From contig DAOUDE010000062.1 of assembly GCA_034431475.1 (NCBI GenBank), positions 21,192-85,191 on the forward strand: a stretch of 64,000 bases of DNA, given 5' to 3'. Below the pieces are notes generated by a model. That model searched no databases. It had not been told where the DNA came from and saw only the letters and a list, made by a program, of their open reading frames with translations. Shown here piece by piece: positions 4,932 through 64,000 of this stretch. Each line of letters begins with the position of its first letter. The first letter of the stretch is position 1. A program made the position numbers and the translations under genes. This DNA is from Thermomicrobiales bacterium. Lineage in GTDB: Bacteria > Chloroflexota > Chloroflexia > Thermomicrobiales > UBA6265.

Positions 4932-7114
4932 GCCGGGGCCTTCACCGGGGGCAGCAGTGCCCGCCACGGCCCGCTCATTCCGGACTCGCTGACACCATAG
5001 AAGACGCGTGGATCGCCATCGCCCAGGTAGACGAGGTCATAGCGACGGTCGCCTGAGCGCTGCCGGTAGGAGCGCCACAGGCCGAAATCGCCCTGCCAGC
5101 GGACCGCGCCAGTGTCGAGTTCACCCTTTTCTCGTTGCTGGATCGCCGCGCGCCACATGCGGCGGTCCGTGTCTTTCGTCACGTTGTAGATGAGCTTGTG
5201 GTACCGCAGGTCACGCAGCGTGTAGTAGCGCACGCCGTCGCTCTCGAAGCTCTCCAGCACCTCGATCCCGGTTGTAGGCGCTACGGGATCGGGTGCCGCG
5301 TCCTCCTCGAAGAGGGCGAACTCCTCTGGCTCGGAGGCGTGCTCTGGCAGCGCCGCCGCTGTCGCGGCCTGTCCGGTAACCAGCGCCGCCAACTCCAATG
5401 CCTCATCACGCACCTCGCCAGCGCGCGGCTCACGGGCCTCGCGGGTCGTCCGAGGCTTCGTGGCCGGCGCGGTGGGCTGTGCTGGTGATTGCTGGCGGTG
5501 AGAACGGCCGTTGCGGGCCGGCGGGGCCACGGGCGCGAGATCGGCCTCGGGCGGCATGATCGACGGAGGGGCCGTACTGGCGACGGCCCGCGCCGGCGCG
5601 GTCGCGGTCACGGGAGCGGCACCAGCCGGCAGGGCAGGTTCCGGGCGTGGCCCGGCCAGATCGGCGCGCACCATGTGCACGATCTCGTCCCGGCTGGCGG
5701 CGGCTGTCTCGCTGCCGCGCCGGATCAGGATGCCGCCCGGCTCCAGCGCGTGCGGCTTCTGGTTCCCATCGGCCACCTCGATAATGATGATCTTCTTGCC
5801 GTCGGCGGTGTGTTCGCGCAGTGAGAGGTGCACGGGCGGCAGAATCTGGCTCGCCGCCTCCGACGTGAGCTCAGCGATCAGCGCGGCGGGATCAGCCACG
5901 CCGGCGATGGGCCGCTTCTCCGCCGCTGACAGCCCGATGTAGATCGTGCCGCCGCCGCTGTTGGCGAAGCCCACGATGTCCCGCAGGATCACGCCCTGGC
6001 CACGGCGGGCCGTGGCGGACTCATGGAACACCTGCGTGCTCGTATTCCCATCCAGGCGCGCGGCCTTGACCGGGTCGCTGGGTGGTGGCGTGAAGGGGCG
6101 AGTCCGCTCGAATTCGTTGCTGGCGAACAGGCCCTTCAGCGAGGCGAACGTCAGTTCCTGCAGCAGCACCTCCGTCGGCCGGTCACCAACGCCGAGGTTG
6201 GTTTCGCGCAGCGGATCCTGCTCCAGGCGGTGGCAATCTGATCCCTGGATGCAGTGCATACGGCGGGGGTACTCGGTCTTCGTGCCGTTGAAGAACCGGG
6301 CCGTCGAGCGGCGGTTTGTGGCCGGGAGGAGGTCAGTAACCTCCATGGCGTGCAGGTTCGGGTCCTGGGTGTAGGCGATCTTGGTCTGGCCCCCGAAGCG
6401 AAGGCCCTGCATGGCGATACCGTGCGTGGAGTTCACGTGCGCGCCGATCACGAGCGCACCGTTGTCCGCCAGTATCTCGTACGCCCGCAGGACATCCGTG
6501 GTCGCGCCGACCTCGCCGCTCCCGAAGCGATCTTCCGGCACGCCAAGCAGGAGCAGCAGATGCTCCATCAGGCGAATGCTGGTGCCCTCCGGGAAGATGG
6601 CCAGGATGTGGAAGCCAAATTGCGCCGTAAACTCGAAGCCGGGCAGAACCAGGATGCGGCTCAGGAGATCCCGGTATTCCGCCAGGCGCTCTGCCTCGGC
6701 GGGCTCCATGCGCCCCAGGTACTCCAGCAGCTCGAGGTCCTCGATTTCGCGCCACATATCGGCATACCCACGGACCGAGTTATGGTCCGTCAGGGCGATG
6801 CCGTGCAGTCCCCGCTCGTCGGCGCGGCGCAGAATATCCAGCACGCGGATATCTGGCTGCTGGTAATCCACGGAGGCCGGAGTGTGGACGTGGAGGTCGA
6901 TTCTGCGCCACTGCAGATCATTGGCATCGGTAGGTGTCGGCACGGGCGGGATAGCCGGCGAAGATGACCGGCCATTAGCTGCCGTGCCTTGCTTGGCAGG
7001 TTGTGGCGCATCTTCTGTGCGCCGTCGCGTGGGTGATATTGGCGTCTCCTTTCGGTAGGGCTGCGCCGAATGCAGCGGTATGAATAACGGCTTGCGCGAC
7101 CCAAACCTTATCAA
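4928..7114 (-). CDS. multidomain protein: N-terminal PHP phosphoesterase domain, central AlbA_2 (Schlafen-type) putative nucleic-acid-binding domain, Pro/Ala linker, unknown C-terminal domain
   Basis: IDLHVHTPASVDY...ALTDHNS...GAHVNSTHG are PHP-type metal-binding His/Asp motifs. ILRDIVGFANSGGGTIYIGL...IIIIEV resembles the AlbA_2 core. The start (TTG 7114) is uncertain and has no SD. Confidence 0.7.
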   Translation of the reverse strand: MIRFGSRKPLFIPLHSAQPYRKETPISPTRRRTEDAPQPAKQGTAANGRSSSPAIPPVPTPTDANDLQWRRIDLHVHTPASVDYQQPDIRVLDILRRADERGLHGIALTDHNSVRGYADMWREIEDLELLEYLGRMEPAEAERLAEYRDLLSRILVLPGFEFTAQFGFHILAIFPEGTSIRLMEHLLLLLGVPEDRFGSGEVGATTDVLRAYEILADNGALVIGAHVNSTHGIAMQGLRFGGQTKIAYTQDPNLHAMEVTDLLPATNRRSTARFFNGTKTEYPRRMHCIQGSDCHRLEQDPLRETNLGVGDRPTEVLLQELTFASLKGLFASNEFERTRPFTPPPSDPVKAARLDGNTSTQVFHESATARRGQGVILRDIVGFANSGGGTIYIGLSAAEKRPIAGVADPAALIAELTSEAASQILPPVHLSLREHTADGKKIIIIEVADGNQKPHALEPGGILIRRGSETAAASRDEIVHMVRADLAGPRPEPALPAGAAPVTATAPARAVASTAPPSIMPPEADLAPVAPPARNGRSHRQQSPAQPTAPATKPRTTREAREPRAGEVRDEALELAALVTGQAATAAALPEHASEPEEFALFEEDAAPDPVAPTTGIEVLESFESDGVRYYTLRDLRYHKLIYNVTKDTDRRMWRAAIQQREKGELDTGAVRWQGDFGLWRSYRQRSGDRRYDLVYLGDGDPRVFYGVSESGMSGPWRALLPPVKAPA

Positions 7115-7346: not shown

Positions 7347-8300
7347 ATGCCACAGATAGACACACCATTGCTTCTGGACGTCCTGTTGGGGCTGGTGATC
7401 CTGCTCTTTGTCCCGTTTGGGATTCGCCGGGGCGTGGCCAGGGAAGCAATGGTTTCGGCCGGCATCTTCCTCGGCGCGGCGCTCGCGGAGCGCTTTGCGC
7501 AACCCTGGAGCCAATGGCTCGGGGAACGCTTTGGCCTGGCGGCGGGCACGGCATCCTTCGTCGTTTCGGCGGGCCTGCTGTTCGGCGGGGCCTTCTTGCT
7601 TGGCTACGGCGGCGGGGCCGCGCTGGGGGTATCCCGGCTGGGCGTACTCTCGCGGCTGGTGGGCGGCCTGCTTGCGGCGTTCAACGCCGCGCTGATGCTC
7701 TCCTACCTGTTGACATGGGTCGAGCGAGACCTCGGTCAGGGCGGCTCGCTGGATGAGGGATATATCAGTCCCTGGTTGCTGCACCGGACGAGCGATCTGC
7801 TGTTGGCTGCCGCCGGGGTGCTGGTCGTCCTGACGGTTCTCTCCTGGATCGTGAATCTGTTTCGCTCGCAGCGACAGCCGCATCGCGACGAGGTTTACCC
7901 GGCGCGAGCGGCCCGGCCCGCCCCAACACCGATGGCGCCCGAGAGCGAGAAGTATGAGCCGGCCGACAACATCGCGCGGTCCGGGCGCTTTGCCCCCGGC
8001 CTCGATGCCACCTCGCCGCTGTCAGCTACGGCGGGTGGGGGCGCGCCCTGGGTGCCAGGCTCTGGCCGCGCGGTGAACGGCAACGGCCGCGAGACGCATG
8101 TCGCTACAACCGCTTCCGGCGACGAAACAGTGTGGGCTGCCTGGGACCCAGCGTCAGGCCCGCAGAGCAGCGGTGGAGCGCGCACGGAGTGGCCGGTGGC
8201 CCCGGCTGTCGGCATCACGCCGGACGAGCGATGCGCCGTTTGCCACGCGCGGGTGGGCCCGCGTGACGTGTTCTGCCCGGAGTGCGGCGCAACCCTGTAG
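7347..8300 (+). CDS. CvpA-family membrane protein with long C-terminal extension ending in a zinc ribbon
   Basis: The N-terminus MPQIDTPLLLDVLLGLVILLFVPFGIRRGVAREA and four hydrophobic segments fit the CvpA pattern. The C-terminus CAVCHARVGPRDVFCPECGATL is a CxxC...CxxC ribbon. Confidence 0.7.
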   Translation: MPQIDTPLLLDVLLGLVILLFVPFGIRRGVAREAMVSAGIFLGAALAERFAQPWSQWLGERFGLAAGTASFVVSAGLLFGGAFLLGYGGGAALGVSRLGVLSRLVGGLLAAFNAALMLSYLLTWVERDLGQGGSLDEGYISPWLLHRTSDLLLAAAGVLVVLTVLSWIVNLFRSQRQPHRDEVYPARAARPAPTPMAPESEKYEPADNIARSGRFAPGLDATSPLSATAGGGAPWVPGSGRAVNGNGRETHVATTASGDETVWAAWDPASGPQSSGGARTEWPVAPAVGITPDERCAVCHARVGPRDVFCPECGATL

Positions 8301-11901: not shown

Positions 11902-13049
11902 GGCTGGCCGGCCACAGCGCCCGGCCCACCGGCCACGCGGACAGGAACCGGCGTGGTCAGGAAAACCTCCGCCGTATCCCGCAGGTGTTCCTCCAGCCGC
12001 TGCCTGACGACTTGGGCCATGGCTGCATCCGCAAACAGCGCGTAGTGCGCAGGACCAGCTCCCGACAACGCGACGTGCGTCGCGCCCGCCGCTCGCATCG
12101 CCCCGGCCACCGCCGCCACATCCGGCCGCAGCGCGTACAGCGCGCGGCTGAACGCGTTGCCAAGCAGCCCCGGATCGAGCGGCTCACCCGCACGCAGTCG
12201 TTCGGCCTGCTGCTGCACCCGCGCGCCATCGCTGAAATCCCCCGGCTCCAGCGCGGCGAACAGGCTGGCGGTCTTGCGCGGCATCTGGACGCGCGGGGCG
12301 ACGATGAGGAAGTAGAGCCCTGGAGAACCCTCACCCCCGGCCCCTCTCCCTGTACGCAGGGAGAGGGGAGACGAAGGAGGCGTTGTGCTCTCAGCCTGGT
12401 TGCCTTGTCCCGGATCCGCAGCCCCCTCCGCCACCGCGAGCCCCTCGCCCTGCGCATCGGGAGAGGGGTTGGGGTGAGGGTCCGTCTCCCTTCTCCCGCG
12501 CATCAGGAGAGGAGCTGGGGGTGAGGGCTCTTCGGGAGAGGCTGACGCCAGCTCACCGGGAAGCGGAAGTCGTTGAAGCACCTCCCCCCGCCCCCTGCCC
12601 AACGCGCACCCGCCTCGCAGCAGGAACGGCACATCGCTGCCCAGTTCCAGCGCCATCTCCGCCAGCGTATCGTCCGTCACCGCCACCTGCCAGTGATCCC
12701 GGAGCGCAAGCAACGTCGCTGCGGCGTCGCTTGAGGCGCCACCCAGTCCCGCCGCGATCGGGATACGTTTCTCCAGCTTCAGCAGCACCCCATGGCCTGG
12801 CGCGACCTGCTGCATCGCCTCGGCCGCGCGCCAGACCAGGTTCTCCTGCGGCGGCACGTCGCTGCCGGAGCACTCGAGCCCAATGCGCGGGCCGGGCGTC
12901 GCGGCCACTGAGAGTTCGTCGCACAGGCTGACGGTGAGGAAGATGGTGGCGAGGTCGTGGTAACCGTCCGCGCGGCGGCCCAGCACCTCCAGCCCGAGGT
13001 TCAGCTTGGCCGGGGCGGAGACAGTGAACGCGAACGGCAGCTCGTCCAT
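11898..13049 (-). CDS. ispE: 4-diphosphocytidyl-2-C-methyl-D-erythritol kinase (IspE) carrying a ~79-aa in-frame insertion
   Basis: GHMP kinase motifs APAKLNLGLEVLGRRADGYHDL, KRIPIAAGLGGASSDAAATLLAL and GSDVPFLL. The start ATG 13049 is 8 nt after the rsmA stop. The ORF track extends to 13154, but that overlaps rsmA. Confidence 0.85.
   Translation of the reverse strand: MDELPFAFTVSAPAKLNLGLEVLGRRADGYHDLATIFLTVSLCDELSVAATPGPRIGLECSGSDVPPQENLVWRAAEAMQQVAPGHGVLLKLEKRIPIAAGLGGASSDAAATLLALRDHWQVAVTDDTLAEMALELGSDVPFLLRGGCALGRGRGEVLQRLPLPGELASASPEEPSPPAPLLMRGRRETDPHPNPSPDAQGEGLAVAEGAADPGQGNQAESTTPPSSPLSLRTGRGAGGEGSPGLYFLIVAPRVQMPRKTASLFAALEPGDFSDGARVQQQAERLRAGEPLDPGLLGNAFSRALYALRPDVAAVAGAMRAAGATHVALSGAGPAHYALFADAAMAQVVRQRLEEHLRDTAEVFLTTPVPVRVAGGPGAVAGQP
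12328..12527. repeat. three copies of a ~40-bp palindromic (REP/MITE-like) element inside the ispE reading frame
   Basis: Unit 1 (12328-12368) is CCCTCACCCCCGG + hairpin CCCCTCTCCCTG-TACG-CAGGGAGAGGGG. Unit 2 (12441-12480) is CCCCTCGCCC-N8-GGGAGAGGGG + TTGGGGTGAGGG, in the opposite orientation. Unit 3 (12486-12527) is a degenerate copy. The same element occurs at 55635-55677. Confidence 0.75.
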
Positions 13050-13057
13050 CCTGGCGC

Positions 13058-13951
13058 CTAGGCGTCGCGCACGCTGCCGGGTGCGGCCTGCGTCAGCGTC
13101 ACCCACTCCGCGACCGAGAGCGTTTCCGCGCGGCGCATGGGATCGACTCCACACGCCTGCAGCCAGGCCGCGATCTCCGGCTTCGGCAGTTGCAGTACGT
13201 CCGCGATGGCGTTGGCGACCTGCTTGCGCTTCTGCCGGAAGCCGGCGTTGAGAATCTTGAAGAAGAGCGGCTGCTCCTCCCAGGGCAGGGGCATTGCGGG
13301 CCGCACATCGAGATGGATCACCGCCGATTCCACCTTGGGCGGCGGGATGAACACCGTCGGCGAGACGGTGAACGCGATCTTCGGTTCGGCGAAGAACTGC
13401 GTTGCCACGGAGAGGATCGTCATGTCCGGCGGTTGGGCCGTGATGCGCTCGGCCACTTCCTTCTGCAACATGACGGTCAAACGCCGTGGCTTGCGCGGCT
13501 GTTCCAGCAGGTGACGCAGGATGGCGGTGCCGGTGGAGTAGGGGAGGTTCGCCACCACGTCGAACGCGATGCCCGGCGCGAACAGGTCGTCGGCCGTCAG
13601 GTGCAGCGCGTTCCCCTGGATTAGCTCGAAGGTCGGCAGGTCCCCGAATGCCGTCTCCAGGTGCGCCGCCAGCCCTCGGTCGTACTCGACCGCGACGACG
13701 TGCCCCGCCTTCCTCAACAGCTCCGAGGTGAGGATGCCCAGCCCCGGCCCGACCTCCAGCACGCTGTCCCCCGGCCCGATGCCGGCCTGGCGCACCATGC
13801 GCTCGACAATGCCGCGCTCGAACAGGAAGTGCTGGCCCAGCCCCTTGTTCGGGCGGATGCCCAGCTCCTCCATCAGCCGGTTCCAGTCGCGGCGCGAGGT
13901 GGGGATGCGGCTGGCCGGGTTCTCCCGGTCAATACCCGGCGCGTCGATCAT
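13058..13951 (-). CDS. rsmA: 16S rRNA (adenine1518/1519-N6)-dimethyltransferase
   Basis: LGQHFLFERGIVERMV and VLEVGPGLGILTSELL (SAM motif I), plus NLPYSTGT. The ATG at 13951 overlaps the selD stop (ATGA). Confidence 0.9.
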   Translation of the reverse strand: MIDAPGIDRENPASRIPTSRRDWNRLMEELGIRPNKGLGQHFLFERGIVERMVRQAGIGPGDSVLEVGPGLGILTSELLRKAGHVVAVEYDRGLAAHLETAFGDLPTFELIQGNALHLTADDLFAPGIAFDVVANLPYSTGTAILRHLLEQPRKPRRLTVMLQKEVAERITAQPPDMTILSVATQFFAEPKIAFTVSPTVFIPPPKVESAVIHLDVRPAMPLPWEEQPLFFKILNAGFRQKRKQVANAIADVLQLPKPEIAAWLQACGVDPMRRAETLSVAEWVTLTQAAPGSVRDA

Positions 13952-15000
13952 GCGCTGACGTCGATCCCGGCGCCCCCGCGCACCTCGCCGATCTCCCACA
14001 ACGGCAGCTCGGCCGCCTCGAACGCCGCCTGCACCTCTTCCGCACGGCGCGGGCAGATGCTGAGCAGCAGCCCGCCGGAGGTCTGCGGATCGAAGAACGC
14101 CGCCTGCCGCAGCGGATCGACCTCTGCGTCGAAGCGCACGCCCCCCGCGTGGGCGGTGTAGTGGTCCCGGTTGCGCCCCAGCCCGCCCGCGAGGTTGCCC
14201 CCGGCGGCGTAGTCGAGCACGCCCGGCAGGAGCGGCACGCTGCCCGCCGTGATCGCCAGGTTGACCCCGCTCTTGGCCGCGATTTCGCTGCCGTGCCCGA
14301 GCAAGCTGAACCCGGTCACATCCGTCGCCGCGTGCACGCCGCTCGTCTTGCGCAGCACTTCCGCCGCGCGCCGGTTCAGCGTCAGCATCGAGTCGATGGC
14401 CGCCTGCAGGTCCGCATCCCGCGCGTTGCCCCGCTTGGCCGCCGTGACCACGATGCCCGTTCCCAGCCGCTTCGTCAGGAACAATCGGTCGCCCGTTCGC
14501 GCCCCGGCCTTCGTCCAGAACCCCAGCGGGTGCACCACCCCGGTCACGACCAGCCCGAACTTCGGCTCCGGATCGACGATGGTGTGCCCGCCCGCGATCA
14601 GCGCGTCCGCCTCTGCGACCTTCGCCGCCGCCCCGGCCAGGATCTGCCCTACCGCCTCGGCCGGAAGATCGTCCGGGAAGGCCGCGACGTTGAGCGCGAA
14701 GAGCACCGTGCCCCCCATGGCGTAGACATCGCTCATGGAGTTCGCAGCCGCAATGGCCCCAAAGGTGTACGGGTCGTCCACAATCGGCGTGAAGAAATCA
14801 ACCGTCTGCACCAGGGCCAGATCATCCGTCAGCCGGTAGACCGCCGCGTCGTCGCTCGTCTGTAACCCGACCAGCAGGTCGGGGTGGCTCCCTCGCGTCA
14901 GCGGCTCCAGCACGCTCGCCAGGGCCGCCGGTCCCATCTTCGCCGCACACCCCGCCGTGCTGGCGAGCGTCGTCAGGCGGATCAATTCAGCGTGCGTCAT
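13948..15000 (-). CDS. selD: selenide, water dikinase (Cys-type SelD)
   Basis: LTTLASTAGCAAKMGP is the Cys-containing active-site loop. The AIR-synthase-like fold motifs DDAAVY, DFFTPIVDDPYTFG, NSMSDVYAMGG are present. The ATG at 15000 gives 350 aa; the upstream extension in the track is low-GC non-coding-like sequence. Confidence 0.9.
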   Translation of the reverse strand: MTHAELIRLTTLASTAGCAAKMGPAALASVLEPLTRGSHPDLLVGLQTSDDAAVYRLTDDLALVQTVDFFTPIVDDPYTFGAIAAANSMSDVYAMGGTVLFALNVAAFPDDLPAEAVGQILAGAAAKVAEADALIAGGHTIVDPEPKFGLVVTGVVHPLGFWTKAGARTGDRLFLTKRLGTGIVVTAAKRGNARDADLQAAIDSMLTLNRRAAEVLRKTSGVHAATDVTGFSLLGHGSEIAAKSGVNLAITAGSVPLLPGVLDYAAGGNLAGGLGRNRDHYTAHAGGVRFDAEVDPLRQAAFFDPQTSGGLLLSICPRRAEEVQAAFEAAELPLWEIGEVRGGAGIDVSA

Positions 15001-15249
15001 GGGGTGAAACTTCCTGCTGCGGGGGCGAAATTGGCGGAACCGGCCGTGCGGCGATGATAGGGATGGGGGCGAGGGGGAGTCAAATTGAGACTGAGAGCAA
15101 AGGAAGTATCGTGAGTGCAATGATGACCTAACTTCATCCACCGAGTACAGACCTATTGGAACGTATCGCTTTTGCTACGCGTTCACTCGGCAAGCGCTGC
15201 GCCCGACTTCTAGCTGGTAATGATGCGCATTCAACCTGCAGCCGTTCAG

Positions 15250-15783
15250 CTATGCGATTCGGACCGGGACAGGCAAGCCTACTCTCATCACGAACCTTCC
15301 AAATGCCTGTGCCAAATGCTCGCGATACGGCGGAAGCAGGCGCATTCTCGGTGAAGTTGCTTTTGCATGCGTTTCAACCTGGAGGAGTGGTGTTGCAGCT
15401 ACCTGTCGAAAGCTTGCGACTCTACAGGGTGACTCGTACTCGGTAATCTCGCATGATGGAATCAAGTACAAGCTGACGACGGAACCCTGCTCTAACTGCT
15501 TCTTAGCACTCTCGCGTGCCTTGTTCGAGTCGGCGTTTGCAATGGCTAAGATGATCTCCTCAACATCGAAAAGCGGACAAACTAAAACGGAATCCAACTT
15601 CCCCTCCGTGAGATCACAGGTTTGAGACAAAACGATTATGTCGTAAACCTCTGTCGTTACATTAGGACTCGTTGCAACTGTCTCAGGGTCGAACGGGGGT
15701 TGCAGAACCAGCAAGGGGAAATCCAAGAGGATATCCCCTTGAGCGAGGGTCTCGTCCGATGTGACTTCGTACATCCCAAGCAC
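15250..15783 (-). CDS. hypothetical protein, island gene 3 (174-177 aa)
   Basis: Third ORF of the low-GC operon, with GTG 15783 or ATG 15774 as start. Motifs: GDILLDFPLLVL, YDIIVLSQTCDL, LLPPYREHLAQAFGRFVMRVGLP. No assignable family. Confidence 0.6.
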   Translation of the reverse strand: MLGMYEVTSDETLAQGDILLDFPLLVLQPPFDPETVATSPNVTTEVYDIIVLSQTCDLTEGKLDSVLVCPLFDVEEIILAIANADSNKARESAKKQLEQGSVVSLYLIPSCEITEYESPCRVASFRQVAATPLLQVETHAKATSPRMRLLPPYREHLAQAFGRFVMRVGLPVPVRIA

Positions 15784-15811
15784 CGCGACGGTAAGGCGAC
15801 CGAGTCGAGAC

Positions 15812-16309
15812 CTATTCCGAGAAGTCCTCAGAAGCTACTATCGGTAAACCTCGTTTCGACGCGAGCAGATTAGGCCTCACGGAGAAAGTTCGCTTTGGCG
15901 CAAGGATAACGTCAAGATTGACATCGTCGTATTGCGTACTTTCTTGTCCTTGTTCCGAAACTCGCTGCTCCAGAGAGGACCGCAACACTCGCTCAGCATG
16001 TAGCTGACGCTCTAGCACGGCAATCTTGGAAAGCAGCACTGCTCTCTCGAACTCGCCAGCGAAATACGCCTCGATGAGTGTCGACTCTGATCGCTTTGGT
16101 ACTGAATTGGTCGCCAGGCGCGATCTGTGACTATTTCCTCGAGTCTGTTTGGGCTTTCCCCAAAAATTTTCCACGACTTCGGGTCCCGACTCCTTCACTC
16201 CATGGTGCTTGGGATCAACCAGGAACAGTGCCTCTGGGTAACTTGGTTCGATAGTCGCATGGCCCCCAACGGTTTTGGCAGCGCCCCTCGCTGCAAATCG
16301 ACTTCTCAT
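15812..16309 (-). CDS. hypothetical protein, island gene 2 (165 aa, basic N-terminus, central coiled-coil-like segment)
   Basis: The ATG at 16309 is preceded by AGGAG with a 5-nt spacer, immediately after the stop (TAG 16320-16322) of gene 1. Heptad-like segment LLSKIAVLERQLHAERVLRSSLEQRVSEQ. The track ORF starts further upstream (16375), overlapping gene 1. Confidence 0.55.
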   Translation of the reverse strand: MRSRFAARGAAKTVGGHATIEPSYPEALFLVDPKHHGVKESGPEVVENFWGKPKQTRGNSHRSRLATNSVPKRSESTLIEAYFAGEFERAVLLSKIAVLERQLHAERVLRSSLEQRVSEQGQESTQYDDVNLDVILAPKRTFSVRPNLLASKRGLPIVASEDFSE

Positions 16310-16319
16310 GAAAGCTCCT

Positions 16320-16979
16320 CTAATCCTGAAGCACGATGCTTGCTGCAATGCCTTTTGCTCGTGCCAATGCCTCATGCGGCACCATCTCAGGATCCACGTT
16401 TGACAAATTGAATTTTACAAGCAACCAGAGATCTTCATTGTAGGGCCGATCCATGATGAAGTTGTAGGAAATTTCTTGGGTTCCATCATCGCCAAACTTG
16501 ACACCTCTAATGCCACGGATTTCATCCAGCGGAACTGAAAATTCCGACGAAGTGTTGAGAACAAATGGTAAGGGGAAAACAGTTCGAATACTCGGGCTGT
16601 CGGGAAAATCGAACTCAACCTCGCATCCTGCTACGCATTCTGGCTCCTCATCTCTAAGAAAAAAGTACAGCTCAGAATGATCCGCAGAGCTAGAAGTCGA
16701 GGGCCTCGACTCCGGTTGCACTTCATACCGGAGTCGCACCCAAATTTTTCCCGTTTCCTGATCATGCGTGGCAATCTCCATCCATGAATGGCTGACCCTA
16801 TTCTTATTGTAAACCAGCTCGATTACCCGGACCTCTTCTTCGGGTACTAGGCTTGAAAAGCGTTCCGAATTGGACGGCGACACATTGAACGACCAAACGA
16901 TGGACAGAGACGACATGTGGTTGCCGGCCAAGTCAAGTCTTGGCCATTCTTGCCGCTTTTCTTTCGCTATCTTCGCCAT
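16320..16979 (-). CDS. hypothetical protein, island gene 1 (219 aa, acidic, predicted beta-rich, no TM)
   Basis: Longest ORF in the low-GC islet and first in the minus-strand operon. No motif recognised. The start at 16979 has only a poorly spaced AGGA, so an internal start (e.g. MSSLSIVW) is possible. Confidence 0.6.
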   Translation of the reverse strand: MAKIAKEKRQEWPRLDLAGNHMSSLSIVWSFNVSPSNSERFSSLVPEEEVRVIELVYNKNRVSHSWMEIATHDQETGKIWVRLRYEVQPESRPSTSSSADHSELYFFLRDEEPECVAGCEVEFDFPDSPSIRTVFPLPFVLNTSSEFSVPLDEIRGIRGVKFGDDGTQEISYNFIMDRPYNEDLWLLVKFNLSNVDPEMVPHEALARAKGIAASIVLQD

Positions 16980-17130
16980 TCCTGATACCCGCGTATGTCT
17001 TGCGACCGGCCTCGTTGGTGGCTTGCTCTATCTATCATTGATTCTACGTCAGTTTGCCCGGCCCATACCTGCGACTGGCCGATTAGATTTCGGCGGAAGC
17101 AGGGTGCCAAATGAGTGAAGAAGCAACTTT

Positions 17131-17583
17131 GTGAAGAGAAGTAACCGAGACAGTCTAACCCCGAAGAAGAGCGCCTTCGCCACCGGCCTCACCTGGCACC
17201 TGTCCCCCGAGCCTCACTGGGCGGCGCATGCTGGTAAGGCCAGGTACACCCCGGAGCATTTCGCCGAGGAGGGGTTCATCCACTGCACGAACGGGGATGA
17301 GCGGCTGATCGAGGTCGGGAACCGCTACTACACCGCCGATCCCAGGCCGTTCCTGGCGCTGCAGGTCGATCTGGATGCGGCCGGGTCGCAGGCCATCTAT
17401 GAGGACCCGGAGCAGGTCTACCCGCACATCTACGGTGAGCTCGACACGGCGGCGGTGCGCCAGGTGCGGCGCATCGTGCGCGGGGCGGACGGCGCGTTCC
17501 TCGGGATCGGGGAGGTGGTCGAGCGCGTGGGCGAGCCCGGCGCGGGCGATGCCGCAGGTAGCGAAGGGCGCGACCGCCGCTGA
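17131..17583 (+). CDS. DUF952 family protein
   Basis: EGFIHCTNGDERL...VYPHIYGELDTAAV fits the DUF952 pattern (FIHCS...PHxYG). Its stop overlaps the MMPL ATG (TGATG). Confidence 0.75.
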   Translation: MKRSNRDSLTPKKSAFATGLTWHLSPEPHWAAHAGKARYTPEHFAEEGFIHCTNGDERLIEVGNRYYTADPRPFLALQVDLDAAGSQAIYEDPEQVYPHIYGELDTAAVRQVRRIVRGADGAFLGIGEVVERVGEPGAGDAAGSEGRDRR

Positions 17584-19799
17584 TGTTTGCTGCGCTCGGG
17601 AGGGCCGCCGTCCGATGGCGCTGGGCGGTGGTCGCGGTCTGGGCCGTGCTGCTGCTGGCGGCGCTGCCGCTGCTGCCGCGCGTCGCTGGGGCGCTGGAGG
17701 TCGGCGGGTTCTCGTCCGCCGGCACCGAGGCCGCGCGGGCGGCGCAGGTGCTGCGGCAGGAACTGGGCTACCCGCCCTCCTCGATGCTCGTGATCTACCA
17801 GTCAGACACGTTGCAGGCGAGTGATCCTGCGTTCCAGCAGGCGGTGACGGCATCGCTGGTGAATGTGCCCGCGCTGCCCTTCGTCACCCAGGTCCAGGAG
17901 CCGCTGGCCAGCGCCGGCATGGTCTCGGCGGATGGCCACACTGCCTACGCGCTGATCGGGCTGAATCTGCCGAACGAGGCCGCGCAGCGGCTGGTGCCGG
18001 AGCTGGAGGCGGCGCTCGTGCCGCAGCCCGAGGTGACCATGCTGCTGGCGGGCGGCCCGGCCTCCTACCGCGATATCGAGACCGTCAGCCAACGCGACTT
18101 GCAACGCGCCGAGCTGCTCGTCTTCCCCATCGCGCTGGTCGCGCTGCTGGTCATCTTCGGCTCGGCGGTCTCGGCGGCGATGCCGCTGGTGATCGGGGGC
18201 GCGGGCGTCGTCATGGTCCTCGTCTCGCTGCTGCTGGCCACCCGCCTCACCGATCTCTCCATTTTCGCGCTCAACCTGGCCACCATGCTCGGCTTCGGCC
18301 TGGCGATCGACTACTCCCTCTTCGTCACCGCTCGCTACCGGGAGGAGCTGGCGCACGGGCAGCCGGTGGGGGAGGCCGTGGCGCGCACCACCGCCACCGC
18401 CGGCAAGGCGGTCTTCTTCTCCGGGACCACCGTGCTCATCGGCCTGCTTGGGCTGTCGCAGTTCGAGTTCATGTTCCTGCGCTCGGTCGGTGTAGCCGGG
18501 GTGATCGTGGTCGCCTGGTCCACCATCGCCGCCCTGACGCTGCTGCCGGCGCTGCTGGCGATCATCGGGCGCAACATCGACCGCTACCCGATCCGTCGCA
18601 CCCGCAACGAATCACGAGCCACCCACGGCTTCTGGGTCACGCTCTCGGGGGCAGTCATGAAGCGGCCGGTCGCGGTCCTCATCCCGACGCTGGCGCTGCT
18701 GCTGCTGCTCGGCTCCCCCTTCCGCCACGCGCAGATCTCCTCGCCCGATGCCACCATCCTGCCCAAGGGGTTGCCATCACGCGAGGCGTTCGACGCTCTC
18801 ACCGCTGCGTTCGGTCCCGGTGAGGTCTCCCCGTTCGTGGTGGTGATCGACGCCCCAGGCCGCATCTTCAGCGATGAAACCCTGGGCGAGGTCTACGCCC
18901 TCTCGCGGCGCATCGCGCAGAACCCCGAAGTGGTGCGCGTCCAGAGCGTGACTCCGCCGAATCTGCCCGAACCGCTGGCCATCGCCACCGCCAAGCTGCA
19001 GCGCGGCCTCGCCGCAACCGGCTCCGCCCAGGGCGCGAAGCTGGCGAATGAGAACGCGGCGGTGCTGCTGGTCTACGGGCGCGACCTCGCCGGCTCCGAC
19101 GCCAGCAAGGCGCTGCTGGCGGATATCCGCGGCCTGTCCATTGCCAGTGGGGACATCCAGGTCGGTGGCGGCACGGCGGAGATCGTCGATTCTGTGGCGG
19201 CCATGTACGCCGATTTCCCCCGCGCCGCCGCCCTCATCGTTGCCGCCACCTACCTGGTACTGCTCCTGCTGTTCCGCTCGGTCCTGCTCCCGGTGAAAGC
19301 GATCCTCATGAACACGCTATCCATTCTGGCCTCGTACGGGGCGCTGGTCTGGGTCTTCCAGGATGGCCATCTGGACTCGTTGCTCGGGTTTACGGCCCTC
19401 GGCTACGTCGAGGCCTCGCTACCCATCATCCTTTTCTGCGTCCTCTTCGGCCTCAGCATGGACTACGAGGTCTTCCTGCTCTCGCGCATCCGCGAGGAGT
19501 GGGAACGCACCGGCAACAACACCGAGGCGGTCGCCGTCGGCCTGCAACGCAGCGGGCGCATCATCACCTCGGCGGCGCTGCTGGTCGTCATCGTCACCGC
19601 CTCCTTCGTGACGGCGGATGTCGTGTTGATCAAGGCGCTGGGGTTTGGCATCGCTCTGGCGGTAACGCTGGATGCCACTGTCGTGCGCGCGCTGCTGGTC
19701 CCCGCGACCATGAAGCTGCTCGGCGCCTGGAACTGGTGGCTGCCCGCGCCGCTGGCCCGGGTGCTGCCGCGCGCTTCGTTCATCGAGGAGACCACGTGA
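17583..19799 (+). CDS. MMPL-family (RND superfamily) membrane transporter
   Basis: 738 aa with two 6-TM bundles separated by soluble loops. FGLAIDYSLFVTARYREEL and FGLSMDYEVFLLSRIREEW are the duplicated MMPL signature segments. Confidence 0.9.
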   Translation: MFAALGRAAVRWRWAVVAVWAVLLLAALPLLPRVAGALEVGGFSSAGTEAARAAQVLRQELGYPPSSMLVIYQSDTLQASDPAFQQAVTASLVNVPALPFVTQVQEPLASAGMVSADGHTAYALIGLNLPNEAAQRLVPELEAALVPQPEVTMLLAGGPASYRDIETVSQRDLQRAELLVFPIALVALLVIFGSAVSAAMPLVIGGAGVVMVLVSLLLATRLTDLSIFALNLATMLGFGLAIDYSLFVTARYREELAHGQPVGEAVARTTATAGKAVFFSGTTVLIGLLGLSQFEFMFLRSVGVAGVIVVAWSTIAALTLLPALLAIIGRNIDRYPIRRTRNESRATHGFWVTLSGAVMKRPVAVLIPTLALLLLLGSPFRHAQISSPDATILPKGLPSREAFDALTAAFGPGEVSPFVVVIDAPGRIFSDETLGEVYALSRRIAQNPEVVRVQSVTPPNLPEPLAIATAKLQRGLAATGSAQGAKLANENAAVLLVYGRDLAGSDASKALLADIRGLSIASGDIQVGGGTAEIVDSVAAMYADFPRAAALIVAATYLVLLLLFRSVLLPVKAILMNTLSILASYGALVWVFQDGHLDSLLGFTALGYVEASLPIILFCVLFGLSMDYEVFLLSRIREEWERTGNNTEAVAVGLQRSGRIITSAALLVVIVTASFVTADVVLIKALGFGIALAVTLDATVVRALLVPATMKLLGAWNWWLPAPLARVLPRASFIEETT

Positions 19800-61961: not shown

Positions 61962-62614
61962 CAGATCCTCCTTGGACCTTCGACACAGCGGGGGAGCAAT
62001 GTCATCGTACCCGAGCGCTCCTCGCATCAACTGCGGAAATGAATTGCTGCTGAAATCCAGGAATACTGCTGGTACCCTTACCACTCGCTCACGCGCGCAA
62101 AACGATAGGTCGTGTTCCGATGCGCTCAGGAAGTCTTGTGGCGCGGAGACATCGCATCTTTGGCTCTGCCGACCTGGCGCTCTCCTGAGCCCTGCACCGA
62201 TTCCCGGAACCGCATGCCTGGTGCTCGGTCATTGTGGCCGCGTTCAAGGTTGGACCCTGTCTGACCGGCAGCCAGGGTGTCCCACCAGACACGCCCACAC
62301 GCGAATCCGCAGGGCCAGGGCCCGCCAAACCTGACCAACGGCCGGTTCATGACCCAGTACCAACCGGATATCGAAAACGCACACTCAATTCGCCAATTGC
62401 GGTTATGATCTGGATGAGAACCGGACGCACCCGGAAAGTTCTCAACACAACTTGCCGGTCACAGGAATATCTGCAACCAGCAATCAGACGGGAAAACGCC
62501 AATGAATCAACGCCAAATTCAGCATGGCTGCTTGTGGGTTCGTTCCCGAATCTCTCCGGTTGTCAACCTCCGTGGCAATCGTTGCCTTCGAAATCATGTG
62601 ATACCGACAGACCG

Positions 62615-63010
62615 ATGATAGAATCCGGTTCAGAACCCGGTTGGCTTTCGGTTGCCGAAGCGTCGCGCGCTCTTGGCATCAGCGAAACCGCGGTGCGGAA
62701 ACGGATTCGCGTGGGCGCCATTCCCACACGTGAGTACCGGGGGCGAAAGGAGGTTCGCATCTCGGTTGGTATCCGCGATGAGCCGAGTTCGCAACCAAAT
62801 CCACTCGTCAAGCTTGATCACGAGCTTGGCCAGGAATTGGGGCGGTTGAAAGGAGAACTGGCCGAGCTTCGAGATCGACTGGTCGAAGTGCAACGTGACC
62901 GTGATCGATGGCACCAGTTGGCGATGGAAACCCGCGAGGAAGCACGAGCAGCCGAGGCAGAACGTGCAGCTCTGGAGCGAGAGTTGCGACTCTTGCTTGC
63001 TAGAACCTAG
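62615..63010 (+). CDS. excisionase/MerR-type helix-turn-helix protein with C-terminal coiled coil
   Basis: WLSVAEASRALGISETAVRKRIRVGAIPT is an HTH_17-like motif. The C-terminal segment LGRLKGELAELRDRLVEVQRDRDRWHQLAMETREEARAAEAERAALERELRLLL is heptad-rich. It lies in a lower-GC segment. Confidence 0.65.
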   Translation: MIESGSEPGWLSVAEASRALGISETAVRKRIRVGAIPTREYRGRKEVRISVGIRDEPSSQPNPLVKLDHELGQELGRLKGELAELRDRLVEVQRDRDRWHQLAMETREEARAAEAERAALERELRLLLART

Positions 63011-63779
63011 TCGACCTGAATTTGCAGCATCCCCCGCATAGCCGTGTTGGTAGAGATGGCAGCAGCCAGTGGCCTCCCAGGGAGCGCCACAACGATGGGG
63101 GTGAGGGAATGGGACACGCCAGGTGGGGAAATCTGTTGAAGCCCTGGCCCTCGGAGTCCACGATGCGTTTGCCGACAGAGGACGCATTACCGTCGGTCTG
63201 TTTTCGCAGGTTCAACTCGGCACGCACGGCAGCGAACTGTTTGTCGTTGCGAGCGGTCCTGAAATCGGTGGCAAGAGCGTTCGCACGTCCTCACAACGTC
63301 AAACCAGTTTGGAAGAGCAATGCTCCCTACCACTTGGACCGTTCATTCAGCACCTGGAAGTAGGACGGCGCGCTGGCTGAAGGAGCGCACATTCCACGCC
63401 GCGCAGGTCAGTCATTGGCCGTTCCCGTCACATTTGCGAAATCGTCGCGCTGTTCAGGTGGGAGTTGTGTGCTGAGGATGCCTCGTGAGGCGTCGGAATC
63501 GAGCTGCCTGGAGGCAAGTGCCCAGGGATACATGCCTGCGCAACAGCTTTCTCATGGCGCTCGATGGATGGGAATCAGGCTCGGGCAGATCCCGCGTGGC
63601 CTGGCTGCTCCTCCACGCAGGGCATCAGGGCTGGGCGGGCCGGCAGCATTTGCACCCGATTTTCCGGCCTGAAACGAGCCTCACCGGAACACATGGCACC
63701 AGAATGGCACCACCGGCAACAAGTGAACCTCTGAATTGAAACAGCGTCTCACACGCGTGGCGTATCCATGCGGTTTTCG

Positions 63780-63855
63780 TGGAGCGGGGGACGAGACTCG
63801 AACTCGCGACAGCCTGCTTGGAAGGCAGGTACTCTACCAACTGAGTTACCCCCGC
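63780..63855 (-). tRNA. tRNA-Gly (anticodon UCC)
   Basis: The minus strand reads GCGGGGGTAACTCAGTTGGTAGAGTACCTGCCTTCCAAGCAGGCTGTCGCGAGTTCGAGTCTCGTCCCCCGCTCCA. It folds by hand into a full cloverleaf: 7-bp acceptor, 4-bp D arm, anticodon arm CCTGC-CTTCCAA-GCAGG, a T arm with TTCGAGT, discriminator U and an encoded CCA. Confidence 0.92.
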
Positions 63856-64000
63856 AACTGGCTGGCGAAGTGTACGCCTCCCGGCACCTCGAGGCAAGCG
63901 CACGAGGCCGCAGCGGGGTCAGACAGCCTGCTTCTCAAGCAGGCATTCAGGCCAATCGCAGGGCGTGCGTGAAGGCCGACCTCCGCCCATTCAGGGCACA

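Follow-up and report, generated by a model that had tools for sequence, protein, structure and literature searches.

What does a short tract of foreign-looking DNA between two conserved genes of a Thermomicrobiales bacterium encode, and how did it come to lie there? The tract, here called the islet, spans positions 15086–17178 (2,093 bp, with no strand of its own) of a 64,000-nucleotide stretch of contig DAOUDE010000062.1 from assembly GCA_034431475.1, which was analysed as a whole and is referred to as the window. It lies between selD and a DUF952 gene and carries a cassette of three co-directional minus-strand genes in the order C-B-A, whose products have 219, 165 and 174 residues, respectively. 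We lean towards the view that the islet is a horizontally acquired three-gene toxin–antitoxin (TA)-like or abortive-infection module at a defence hotspot, in which A, going by its predicted fold, would be the effector and B its neutralizer. By sequence, the cassette is a divergent variant of a widespread and uncharacterized family in which a small gene, called up1, directly precedes a homologue of A. An islet of low guanine-plus-cytosine (GC) content is as such ordinary; what is new is a TA-like cassette, built on a widespread, uncharacterized family with a predicted MazF/CcdB fold, that annotation has missed.

A foreign islet at a variable defence locus

The islet has a GC content of 0.512, compared with 0.664 in the remainder of the window (z = −6.7 relative to 578 windows of equal size), and its tetranucleotide profile departs from the window average by an L1 distance of 0.594 (background 0.209 ± 0.03). 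In windows of 200 nucleotides (nt), GC falls from 0.64–0.77 in the flanks to 0.43–0.555 over roughly 15000–17200 and then recovers. The 1-kb bins over 15001–17000 stand at 0.530 and 0.503 and the next-lowest bin of the 64-kb window at 0.579, so that on this scale the islet is the deepest GC trough present. These measurements bear out an abrupt drop at 15130–17130 that an earlier, sequence-only reading of the same DNA had described from hand counts. The 60-nt counts themselves hold up, at 0.40, 0.383 and 0.45 within the islet and 0.667 and 0.70 beyond it, but they sampled troughs, and the mean over 15130–17130 is 0.513. The same reading had noted codons richer in A and T at the third position within the islet, and indeed GC at third codon positions (GC3) is 0.52–0.57 in the three cassette open reading frames (ORFs) and 0.86–0.91 in the four neighbouring genes selD, rsmA, DUF952 and MMPL. 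A GC3 that lies 30–35 points under that of the host indicates that the cassette has undergone no amelioration so far.

Relatives of the organism carry different DNA at this position. Two of them, L109 and L107, were reached through proteins in the selD 90%-identity cluster; both have the same selD–rsmA and DUF952–MMPL flanks, at 79–84% nucleotide identity to the window, and both lack C-B-A there. L109, a whole contig of 10.9 kb, retains both flanks, MMPL–DUF952 and selD–rsmA, at 83–84% nucleotide identity, and its homology covers only window positions 12582–15085 and 17179–19799. Between these flanks it holds 5.3 kb of cargo at 49–59% GC, with genes for a 532-residue PDC-M33A-like protein, a 317-residue protein, a DUF6339/PDC-M33C-like protein, a DruM-like cytosine (C5) methylase and Vsr. 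In L107 (GCA_047605145.1), DruA of Druantia is encoded directly upstream of selD (PADLOC E = 1e-107) in DNA of 50–55% GC. Summarized over the two relatives, cargo GC is 50–57%. Because different defence-type cargo lies between conserved flanks in these relatives, the gap between selD and DUF952 is a variable defence hotspot, described here from three alleles (the window, L109 and L107). The very-short-patch-repair (Vsr) endonuclease ORF in L109 was uncalled (positions 7820–8236, Logan DRR438448; E = 3e-26 to PDB 1CW0); it overlaps the end of the C5-methylase gene and completes a Dcm–Vsr pair in that alternative cargo.

The horizontal acquisition that had been proposed from composition therefore gains support from relatives in which the same flanks enclose other low-GC cargo. 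Alignment of the interval with these relatives also shows that the three genes are not shared at the locus, which is the opposite of vertical inheritance. On the selD side, homology to the window breaks at 15085 (L109) or 15004 (L107), and on the DUF952 side at 17179; the breaks with L109 place the borders at 15086 and 17178, 44–48 bp further out than the 15130 and 17130 first proposed.

No integrase, transposase, tRNA or flanking repeat had been seen at the islet, and the searches agree. Pfam and NCBIfam find no integrase or transposase domain among the three cassette ORFs, the tRNA nearest to the islet lies at 63780 (none within 46 kb), an Rfam scan gives no match, and a repeat search yields no convincing flanking repeat or att site. 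A 13-nt exact repeat within the islet, at 15328 and 17091, is probably due to chance. Because breakpoints vary between relatives and att-like repeats are missing, we infer that recombination within the conserved flanks, rather than site-specific integration, replaces one cargo with another. Core defence hotspots between conserved genes have been described in Pseudomonas aeruginosa (PMC10250203), and the selD–DUF952 site resembles them in its conserved flanks, different defence cargos and lack of a dedicated integrase.

Two other accounts of the foreign composition are that the islet is an ancient vertical segment of odd composition, or that it is a chimera or contaminant of a metagenome-assembled genome (MAG). 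The organism is indeed uncultured and comes from metagenome assemblies only. However, 18 contigs from independent runs and three NCBI assemblies share, at 100% identity, a 2,401-bp region (14900–17300) that spans both junctions; one assembly with this region is represented by a 1.55-Mb contig of GCA_046328355.1, a Thermomicrobiales MAG. Identical junctions across independent contigs and assemblies exclude an assembly chimera, and the other cargo found at the site in relatives, along with the depressed GC3, renders both accounts scarcely credible. A search for an empty site or strain polymorphism by way of identical DUF952 proteins returned the cassette, at 100% identity, in 19 of 19 contigs. 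The recurrence of the identical islet and junctions across many unrelated-looking sequencing runs (loci L004–L011 and L097–L106) suggests that the Thermomicrobiales source population is very clonal and widely sampled.

A tightly packed cassette that moves as a unit

The presence of three ORFs inside the islet, as first reported, is confirmed, and all are on the minus strand. Gene C comes first (16320–16979, with its stop codon at 16320–16322), followed by gene B (15812–16309) and, after a gap of 37 nt, gene A (15250–15774, with an alternative GTG start at 15783). Judged from the sequence, the start of B is most likely the ATG at 16309 and not position 16375. An AGGAG ribosome-binding site (16315–16319, minus strand) directly follows the TAG stop of C and ends 5 nt before this ATG, so that the minus strand reads TAG and then, within 13 nt, AGGAG, CTTTC and ATG. 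The resulting 165-residue product is also the form called in most assemblies of identical sequence.

A second copy of the complete cassette occurs in L003, a 5.6-kb contig from another high-GC organism, which encodes C′ (222 residues, 37% identity), B′ (162 residues, 25%) and A′ (184 residues, 54%) in the same order. There the cassette lies between transketolase genes and an unrelated gene, in an islet of about 2.1 kb and about 50% GC within a host of about 68%. The window and L003 copies show no conservation in their non-coding ends, and the transferred unit in both comprises the three genes and about 200 bp on each side. Thus, the cassette moves as a unit.

Much of this anatomy is missing from public annotation. 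In the NCBI MAG, selD, C and DUF952 carry the consecutive accessions MFN8675403, MFN8675404 and MFN8675405, which means that genes A and B (15250–16309) are not annotated and that C, as a hypothetical protein, is the sole annotated gene of the cassette. Gene A is likewise skipped by several public gene calls of identical sequence (L097, L098 and L100), and B′ in L003 is uncalled by the source annotation. The foreign composition probably defeats gene finders at A and B.

One further element of the cassette DNA is an 18-nt direct repeat in which 16 of 18 positions are alike (89%). Its copies, which read AATAGGTCTGTACTCGGT and AATAGGTCTCGACTCGGT on the minus strand, lie at 15140–15157 and 15799–15816; one overlaps the B stop codon in the B–A spacer and the other is 93 nt 3′ of the A stop. 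The repeat could be a regulatory site or a coincidence and is probably the latter, with a chance expectation of about 0.06 by rough estimate.

Protein A has a predicted MazF/CcdB-type fold

A is the most conserved component of the cassette. Among 5.8 billion clustered proteins, 1,791 homologues are found at E ≤ 1e-3, all of them labelled 'hypothetical', about 170–190 residues long and without a Pfam domain; the best 119 of the 1,791 match A at E = 1e-50 to 1e-29. The invariant positions of the family are Q-G-D, Q-x-C-D-L (within SQ(S/T)CDL), C-P (within VLVCP), F-R, R-x-R and P-Y-R-E(-H) (within PPYREH), and A of the window holds every one of these columns. Searches of A, B and C against Pfam, NCBIfam, PADLOC, PHROGs and PDB sequences returned nothing save a match of A to phrog_4575, a family with no assigned function (E = 2.6e-6), and a weak leucine-zipper match for B.

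Structure prediction is more informative. An AlphaFold2 model of A has a mean predicted local distance difference test score (pLDDT) of 89.2 and a predicted template modelling (TM) score of 0.83. When this model is compared with the PDB by Foldseek, the top 50 matches are all MazF (EndoA), MoxT, Kid or CcdB, the best at E = 3.4e-4, with TM scores of 0.55–0.71 when normalized to the target and of 0.34–0.47 when normalized to the query, A being the longer protein. On the basis of this confident model, A is predicted to have a β-barrel fold of the MazF/CcdB type.

A conserved C-terminal motif links B to up1 proteins

At 80 genome loci and others, A is immediately preceded by a small gene whose product typically has 85–140 residues and a hypervariable N terminus. 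The C terminus of nearly all of these products carries a motif of about 35 residues, composed of an acidic-x-D-h-x-V element (h, hydrophobic), PPK(K/R)xY, two alternating hydrophobic stretches and (K/R)(K/R)(G/A)xP-x-I-V-x-P. An alignment of the last 50 residues shows this motif in most of 70 upstream genes, B and B′ included, and a hidden Markov model (HMM) built on the main up1 cluster recovers it at 44 of 84 loci. In B the motif corresponds to residues 129–163, DVNLDVILAPKRTFSVRPNLLASKRGLPIVASEDF (15821–15925, minus strand), as located both by the alignment of the 70 C termini and by hhalign, which aligns exactly these residues when a profile of B and B′ is compared with up1 (E = 0.0032, probability 10%).

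The rest of B departs from the typical up1 protein. B is longer (165 versus about 125 residues), its N-terminal 75 residues are basic and probably disordered, and a central heptad-like, coiled-coil-like helix separates them from the up1-type motif. Pfam gives only the weak leucine-zipper match, NCBIfam gives none, and B′ is the sole recognizable homologue. In up1 proteins, the motif is basic (charge +2.8) and the remainder acidic (−8.3); the combination of a basic motif with an acidic A suggests that the motif docks onto A. The up1 and A genes often overlap or abut at other loci.

The first-gene slot is exchangeable

C itself has no match in Pfam, NCBIfam, PADLOC or PDB sequences. A word-indexed search finds 4 homologues and a profile search 233 representatives, of about 205–245 residues. 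The AlphaFold2 model (pLDDT 91.3) depicts a two-lobed α+β protein for which Foldseek returns no PDB match with a TM score above 0.3 and no meaningful match in BFVD. A metagenome scan with the C family recovered the same organism only, and the broader C-family alignment has no conserved stretch fit for scanning.

Other members of the A family have a different gene in this place. Of the 61 loci whose sequence extends 1.8 kb or more upstream of A, the first gene belongs to TIGR04255 in 29, is of the C type in one (L003) and is neither in 31, many of which are plain two-gene up1–A pairs. Across all 84 loci, the C-type variant occurs in the window and L003 only. The TIGR04255 first genes encode 245–270 residues, and that of L002 matches the family at E = 9e-47. 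C is not a divergent form of these proteins as far as profiles can tell: hhalign finds no similarity between C and TIGR04255-type genes (probability 0.3%), and neither C nor any of 60 C-family members matches TIGR04255 or another informative family in NCBIfam. In the one long contig examined, a C-family gene stands alone, adjoining a transposase.

A TIGR04255 gene also occurs outside the A family, in a prophage on the Pantoea sp. Lij88 plasmid NZ_CP118267.1 (L118, positions 4983–6831). There it heads a set of three genes, encoding 266, 189 and 149 residues, in the moron slot that separates the lysis genes from the gene for the small terminase subunit; neither of the two genes that follow it is related to up1 or A, and Pfam finds no domain in either. 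That TIGR04255 heads a different cassette in this prophage indicates that the first-gene slot is modular, and TIGR04255 seems to be reused at the head of several small cassettes. The literature library that was searched yielded no paper on TIGR04255.

The A family is scattered across bacteria and archaea

At least 580 A loci are present in a scan of one genome per species. The bacterial hosts include Planctomycetota, Chloroflexota, Nitrospirota, Acidobacteriota, Firmicutes and others, and the archaeal hosts include Methanothrix (many MAGs) and other Methanosarcinales, Heimdallarchaeota, Pacearchaeota and Promethearchaeum syntrophicum MK-D1. In the last of these, a cultured Asgard archaeon (NZ_CP042905.2), an intact A gene lies at 5971–6501 of locus L063 (HMM E = 5e-73). 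The occurrence of the family in both archaea and bacteria indicates that the cassette crosses the domain boundary. Compared with its flanks, the cassette has a raised AT content at 57 of 59 loci (median GC difference −5.7 points; Wilcoxon p = 3e-11). One member sits amid an Eco57I-type restriction–modification gene, a transposase, a Schlafen/AlbA_2 gene and an AriA/NsnB-like ATPase, and other members adjoin rve or IS110 transposases. Split or truncated A genes (L020, 4031–4588; L072, 4388–4921; L117, 3253–3690), in L020 together with a broken TIGR04255-type gene, show that the cassette decays in some hosts.

Such associations raise the question of whether a prophage, insertion sequence or integrative element left the islet behind as a remnant, as the match of A to phrog_4575, the six IMG/VR contigs with A cassettes and the transposases near some members might indicate. 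Yet the islet holds no phage structural gene in addition to lacking an integrase, a transposase, a tRNA and terminal repeats. Furthermore, only three genes with about 200 bp per side were transferred, and the non-coding flanks are not conserved. We therefore regard an element remnant as very improbable.

A candidate mechanism and the evidence against it

In type II TA systems the usual order is antitoxin upstream, then toxin, and the C-terminal segments of the antitoxins MazE, Kis and CcdA bind their toxins. The cassette follows this usual order, the partner preceding the gene with the predicted MazF fold. In the mechanism we somewhat favour, A would be a growth-arresting effector with a MazF/CcdB fold; B, encoded directly upstream and translated first, would hold A inactive, with its conserved C-terminal peptide docking onto A; and C would be an exchangeable accessory acting as a sensor, regulator or stabilizer. 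If B were lost or displaced, on phage infection or loss of the cassette, A would be freed. The sequence-only reading had guessed at a TA or anti-phage cassette from the size and isolation of the islet. Its guess fits the predicted fold of A, the defence hotspot and the small, tight operon, and it is from these features that we infer the function.

A number of observations weigh against this mechanism, and the first group concerns A. Pfam run on A and 33 family members at E values up to 10 gave no MazF, PemK or CcdB match, a profile of the A family searched against PDB sequences found no MazF, and hhalign of A against a MazF profile gave a probability of 0.8% (E = 0.074). The MazF profile was itself confirmed by its PDB matches (E of about 1e-49). 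The non-significant local alignment that hhalign returns, pairing MazF 'PVLVIQND..IVAAIT' with A 'DIIVLSQTCDL..VLVCP', covers the topologically expected stretch of MazF strand 3, helix 1 and strand 4. The RNase site of MazF comprises a catalytic Arg (R25 in Bacillus subtilis, R29 in Escherichia coli) and a Thr/Ser, and in this alignment the catalytic Arg-Pro is faced by Tyr/Phe/His-Asp in A. A is moreover acidic (isoelectric point 4.7; family median 5.5), unlike the RNA-binding MazF toxins. A is accordingly classed, on its model, by its MazF/CcdB-type fold and is kept apart from the MazF RNase family. A different active site, or a site that binds metal, may be built from the invariant Cys-Asp, Cys and Glu-His of A, and if A is a toxin, it probably acts through chemistry other than that of the MazF RNase.

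The second group concerns B. Pfam and NCBIfam recognize no DNA-binding domain in it, whether helix-turn-helix (HTH), ribbon-helix-helix or AbrB, and its link to up1 consists of a weak profile match and agreement in position. In addition, a Chloroflexia MAG (JAXDKH010000377.1; L018, positions 367–1488) encodes, directly upstream of an A homologue, a 373-residue fusion of a RES toxin domain (PF08808, 33.8 bits, above the Pfam cut-off) to the up1 motif. The fusion gene shares 4 nt with A, and the 366 bp upstream of it contain no Xre-type ORF. The view of B as a simple antitoxin does not fit a RES domain fused to its motif.

This fusion supports the reversed polarity, in which A together with the B peptide forms a docking or neutralizing platform, A behaves like a promiscuous antitoxin or a regulator, and the harm lies in the first gene or in a domain attached to the peptide. 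The acidity of A and its apparent lack of the MazF catalytic Arg point the same way, as do the unrelated families (TIGR04255, C and others) that fill the first-gene slot, the different cassette headed by TIGR04255 in the Pantoea prophage and the occurrence of C-family proteins without A or B. However, 31 of 61 loci have neither a TIGR04255- nor a C-type gene, and many of these are two-gene pairs whose up1 protein is polar, acidic and only 85–100 residues long, leaving no room for an enzymatic toxin. A is also the most conserved component, as toxins usually are, and the RES fusion is a single case. The reversed polarity is judged unlikely, though it deserves more weight than any other rival considered here.

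A third group of observations concerns genomic context. PADLOC-DB v2 gives no match to A, B or C (E up to 1) or to the canonical triplet of L094. A Pfam census of 140 neighbour ORFs in 19 loci, with no control set, finds mostly housekeeping genes with few HTH, PIN and M78 domains, and no clear defence enrichment. The search of phage and plasmid collections that had been proposed for the cassette was also run. IMG/VR has few A-family loci (6, mostly headed by a TIGR04255-type gene) and no C-family locus, and a tblastn search with A finds no match among GenBank phages or PLSDB plasmids.

It is also conceivable that the islet is foreign DNA but no conflict system, being instead an accessory operon for regulation or stress response in a variable region. 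A MazF/CcdB-type barrel does not alone dictate toxicity, no known defence or TA model matches A, B or C, and the neighbourhoods of the family are mostly made up of housekeeping genes. Nevertheless, recognized defence genes occupy the same site in relatives. The sporadic spread through bacteria and archaea and the consistent AT bias are typical of conflict systems, and so are the hypervariable partner, the pseudogenes and the nearby restriction–modification genes, ATPases and transposases. An operon without a role in conflict is therefore considered improbable.

A broader proposal goes beyond the TA-like module and is put forward tentatively, as a possibility we consider doubtful. The family may constitute a previously undescribed conflict platform, widely scattered in bacteria and archaea, in which the short basic peptide of hypervariable partners (one of them with RES) would dock onto a MazF/CcdB-fold protein that is acidic and has an invariant set of Cys-Asp, Cys and Glu-His, in combination with interchangeable first genes. 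Its chemistry would then be unlike both the RNase activity of MazF and gyrase poisoning by CcdB.

Comparison with known systems

MazEF, Kis–Kid (PemIK) and CcdAB, the nearest characterized systems, resemble the cassette in the predicted structure of A, in the partner gene directly upstream and in the tight, small and mobile operon. As in MazE, Kis and CcdA, the conserved part of the partner is a short C-terminal segment. A nevertheless differs from MazF: it is about 60 residues longer, contains inserted helices and has a C-terminal helix under strong conservation (PPYREHLAQAF). It shows no sequence or profile similarity to these toxins and appears not to conserve the MazF catalytic Arg. Further differences from these systems are the acidity of A, the basic rather than acidic binding motif of the partner, the partner's lack of a DNA-binding domain and the presence of a third gene.

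Toxin–antitoxin–chaperone (TAC) systems add a SecB-like chaperone to a TA pair and have an antitoxin with a conserved C-terminal extension. The cassette likewise adds an accessory gene to a two-gene core and encodes an antitoxin-like protein with a conserved C-terminal extension, but C has no SecB-like or other recognizable domain (by Pfam, NCBIfam and PDB fold) and the gene order differs. Because the B-type motif is kept in two-gene loci that have no third gene, the motif tracks A and not an accessory protein. The likeness to Xre–RES systems is limited to L018, which alone carries a RES domain upstream of A; the window cassette has no RES, and in L018 the domain is fused to the up1 motif with no Xre seen.

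Within the family, the counterpart is the canonical, uncharacterized TIGR04255–up1–A cassette, which shares with the islet the A family (35–54% identity), the position and motif of the middle gene, the gene order and similar sizes. It differs in its first gene, which in the window belongs to the unrelated C family, and in its middle gene, B being longer and having a coiled-coil-like segment. A further parallel is offered by GajC of type II Gabija, a defence effector with a split MazF-like fold and a helical insertion that is recognizable by structure prediction only (PMC13069673). A is also predicted to have a MazF-like fold interrupted by a helical insertion. GajC is paired with the UvrD-type helicase GajB, whereas the cassette has no helicase.

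Conserved flanks and other features of the window

The conserved flank on the selD side begins with selD itself (13948–15000, minus strand), which has AIRS and AIRS_C domains, is named SelD by NCBI and is called as a 350-residue product in other assemblies too; rsmA comes next. A predicted σ70-like promoter for selD, TTGACT-18-TATCAT (10 of 12 consensus matches), lies at 15054–15083 on the minus strand, within the conserved flank and abutting the islet border. The stretch TTTGACTCCCCCTCGCCCCCATCCCTATCATCGCCG at this promoter is identical in L109. On the other side, the DUF952 gene (17131–17583, plus strand; PF06108, E = 6e-15) is followed by MMPL. The first 16 or so codons of the DUF952 ORF (17131–17178) lie inside the variable segment, L109 homology starts at 17179, and the protein has 150 residues in the window and 141 in the relative. 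Either the N terminus is derived from the island or the true start lies further downstream.

The second-lowest GC of the window (0.579–0.609) is found at 62000–64000. This region contains an ORF of 258 residues (62234–63010) with a weak match to the excisionase-type HTH_17 domain and a tRNA-Gly(TCC) gene (63780–63855), and it possibly marks the border of a tRNA-associated integrative element extending past the end of the window.

Implications

If the favoured reading is correct, it would provide the first structural and functional hypothesis for a family of about 1,800 homologues that has no Pfam, NCBIfam or PADLOC model, namely an effector of the MazF/CcdB fold restrained by a conserved C-terminal peptide, and it would tie the orphan TIGR04255 family to the A-family system. 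It would also identify the interval between selD and DUF952 as a defence hotspot in Thermomicrobiales, a group in which defence islands have been little studied. Since the MAG annotation missed two of the three genes, small conflict systems in high-GC genomes may be systematically under-called. The A family reaches culturable or directly sampled organisms, such as Promethearchaeum syntrophicum MK-D1.

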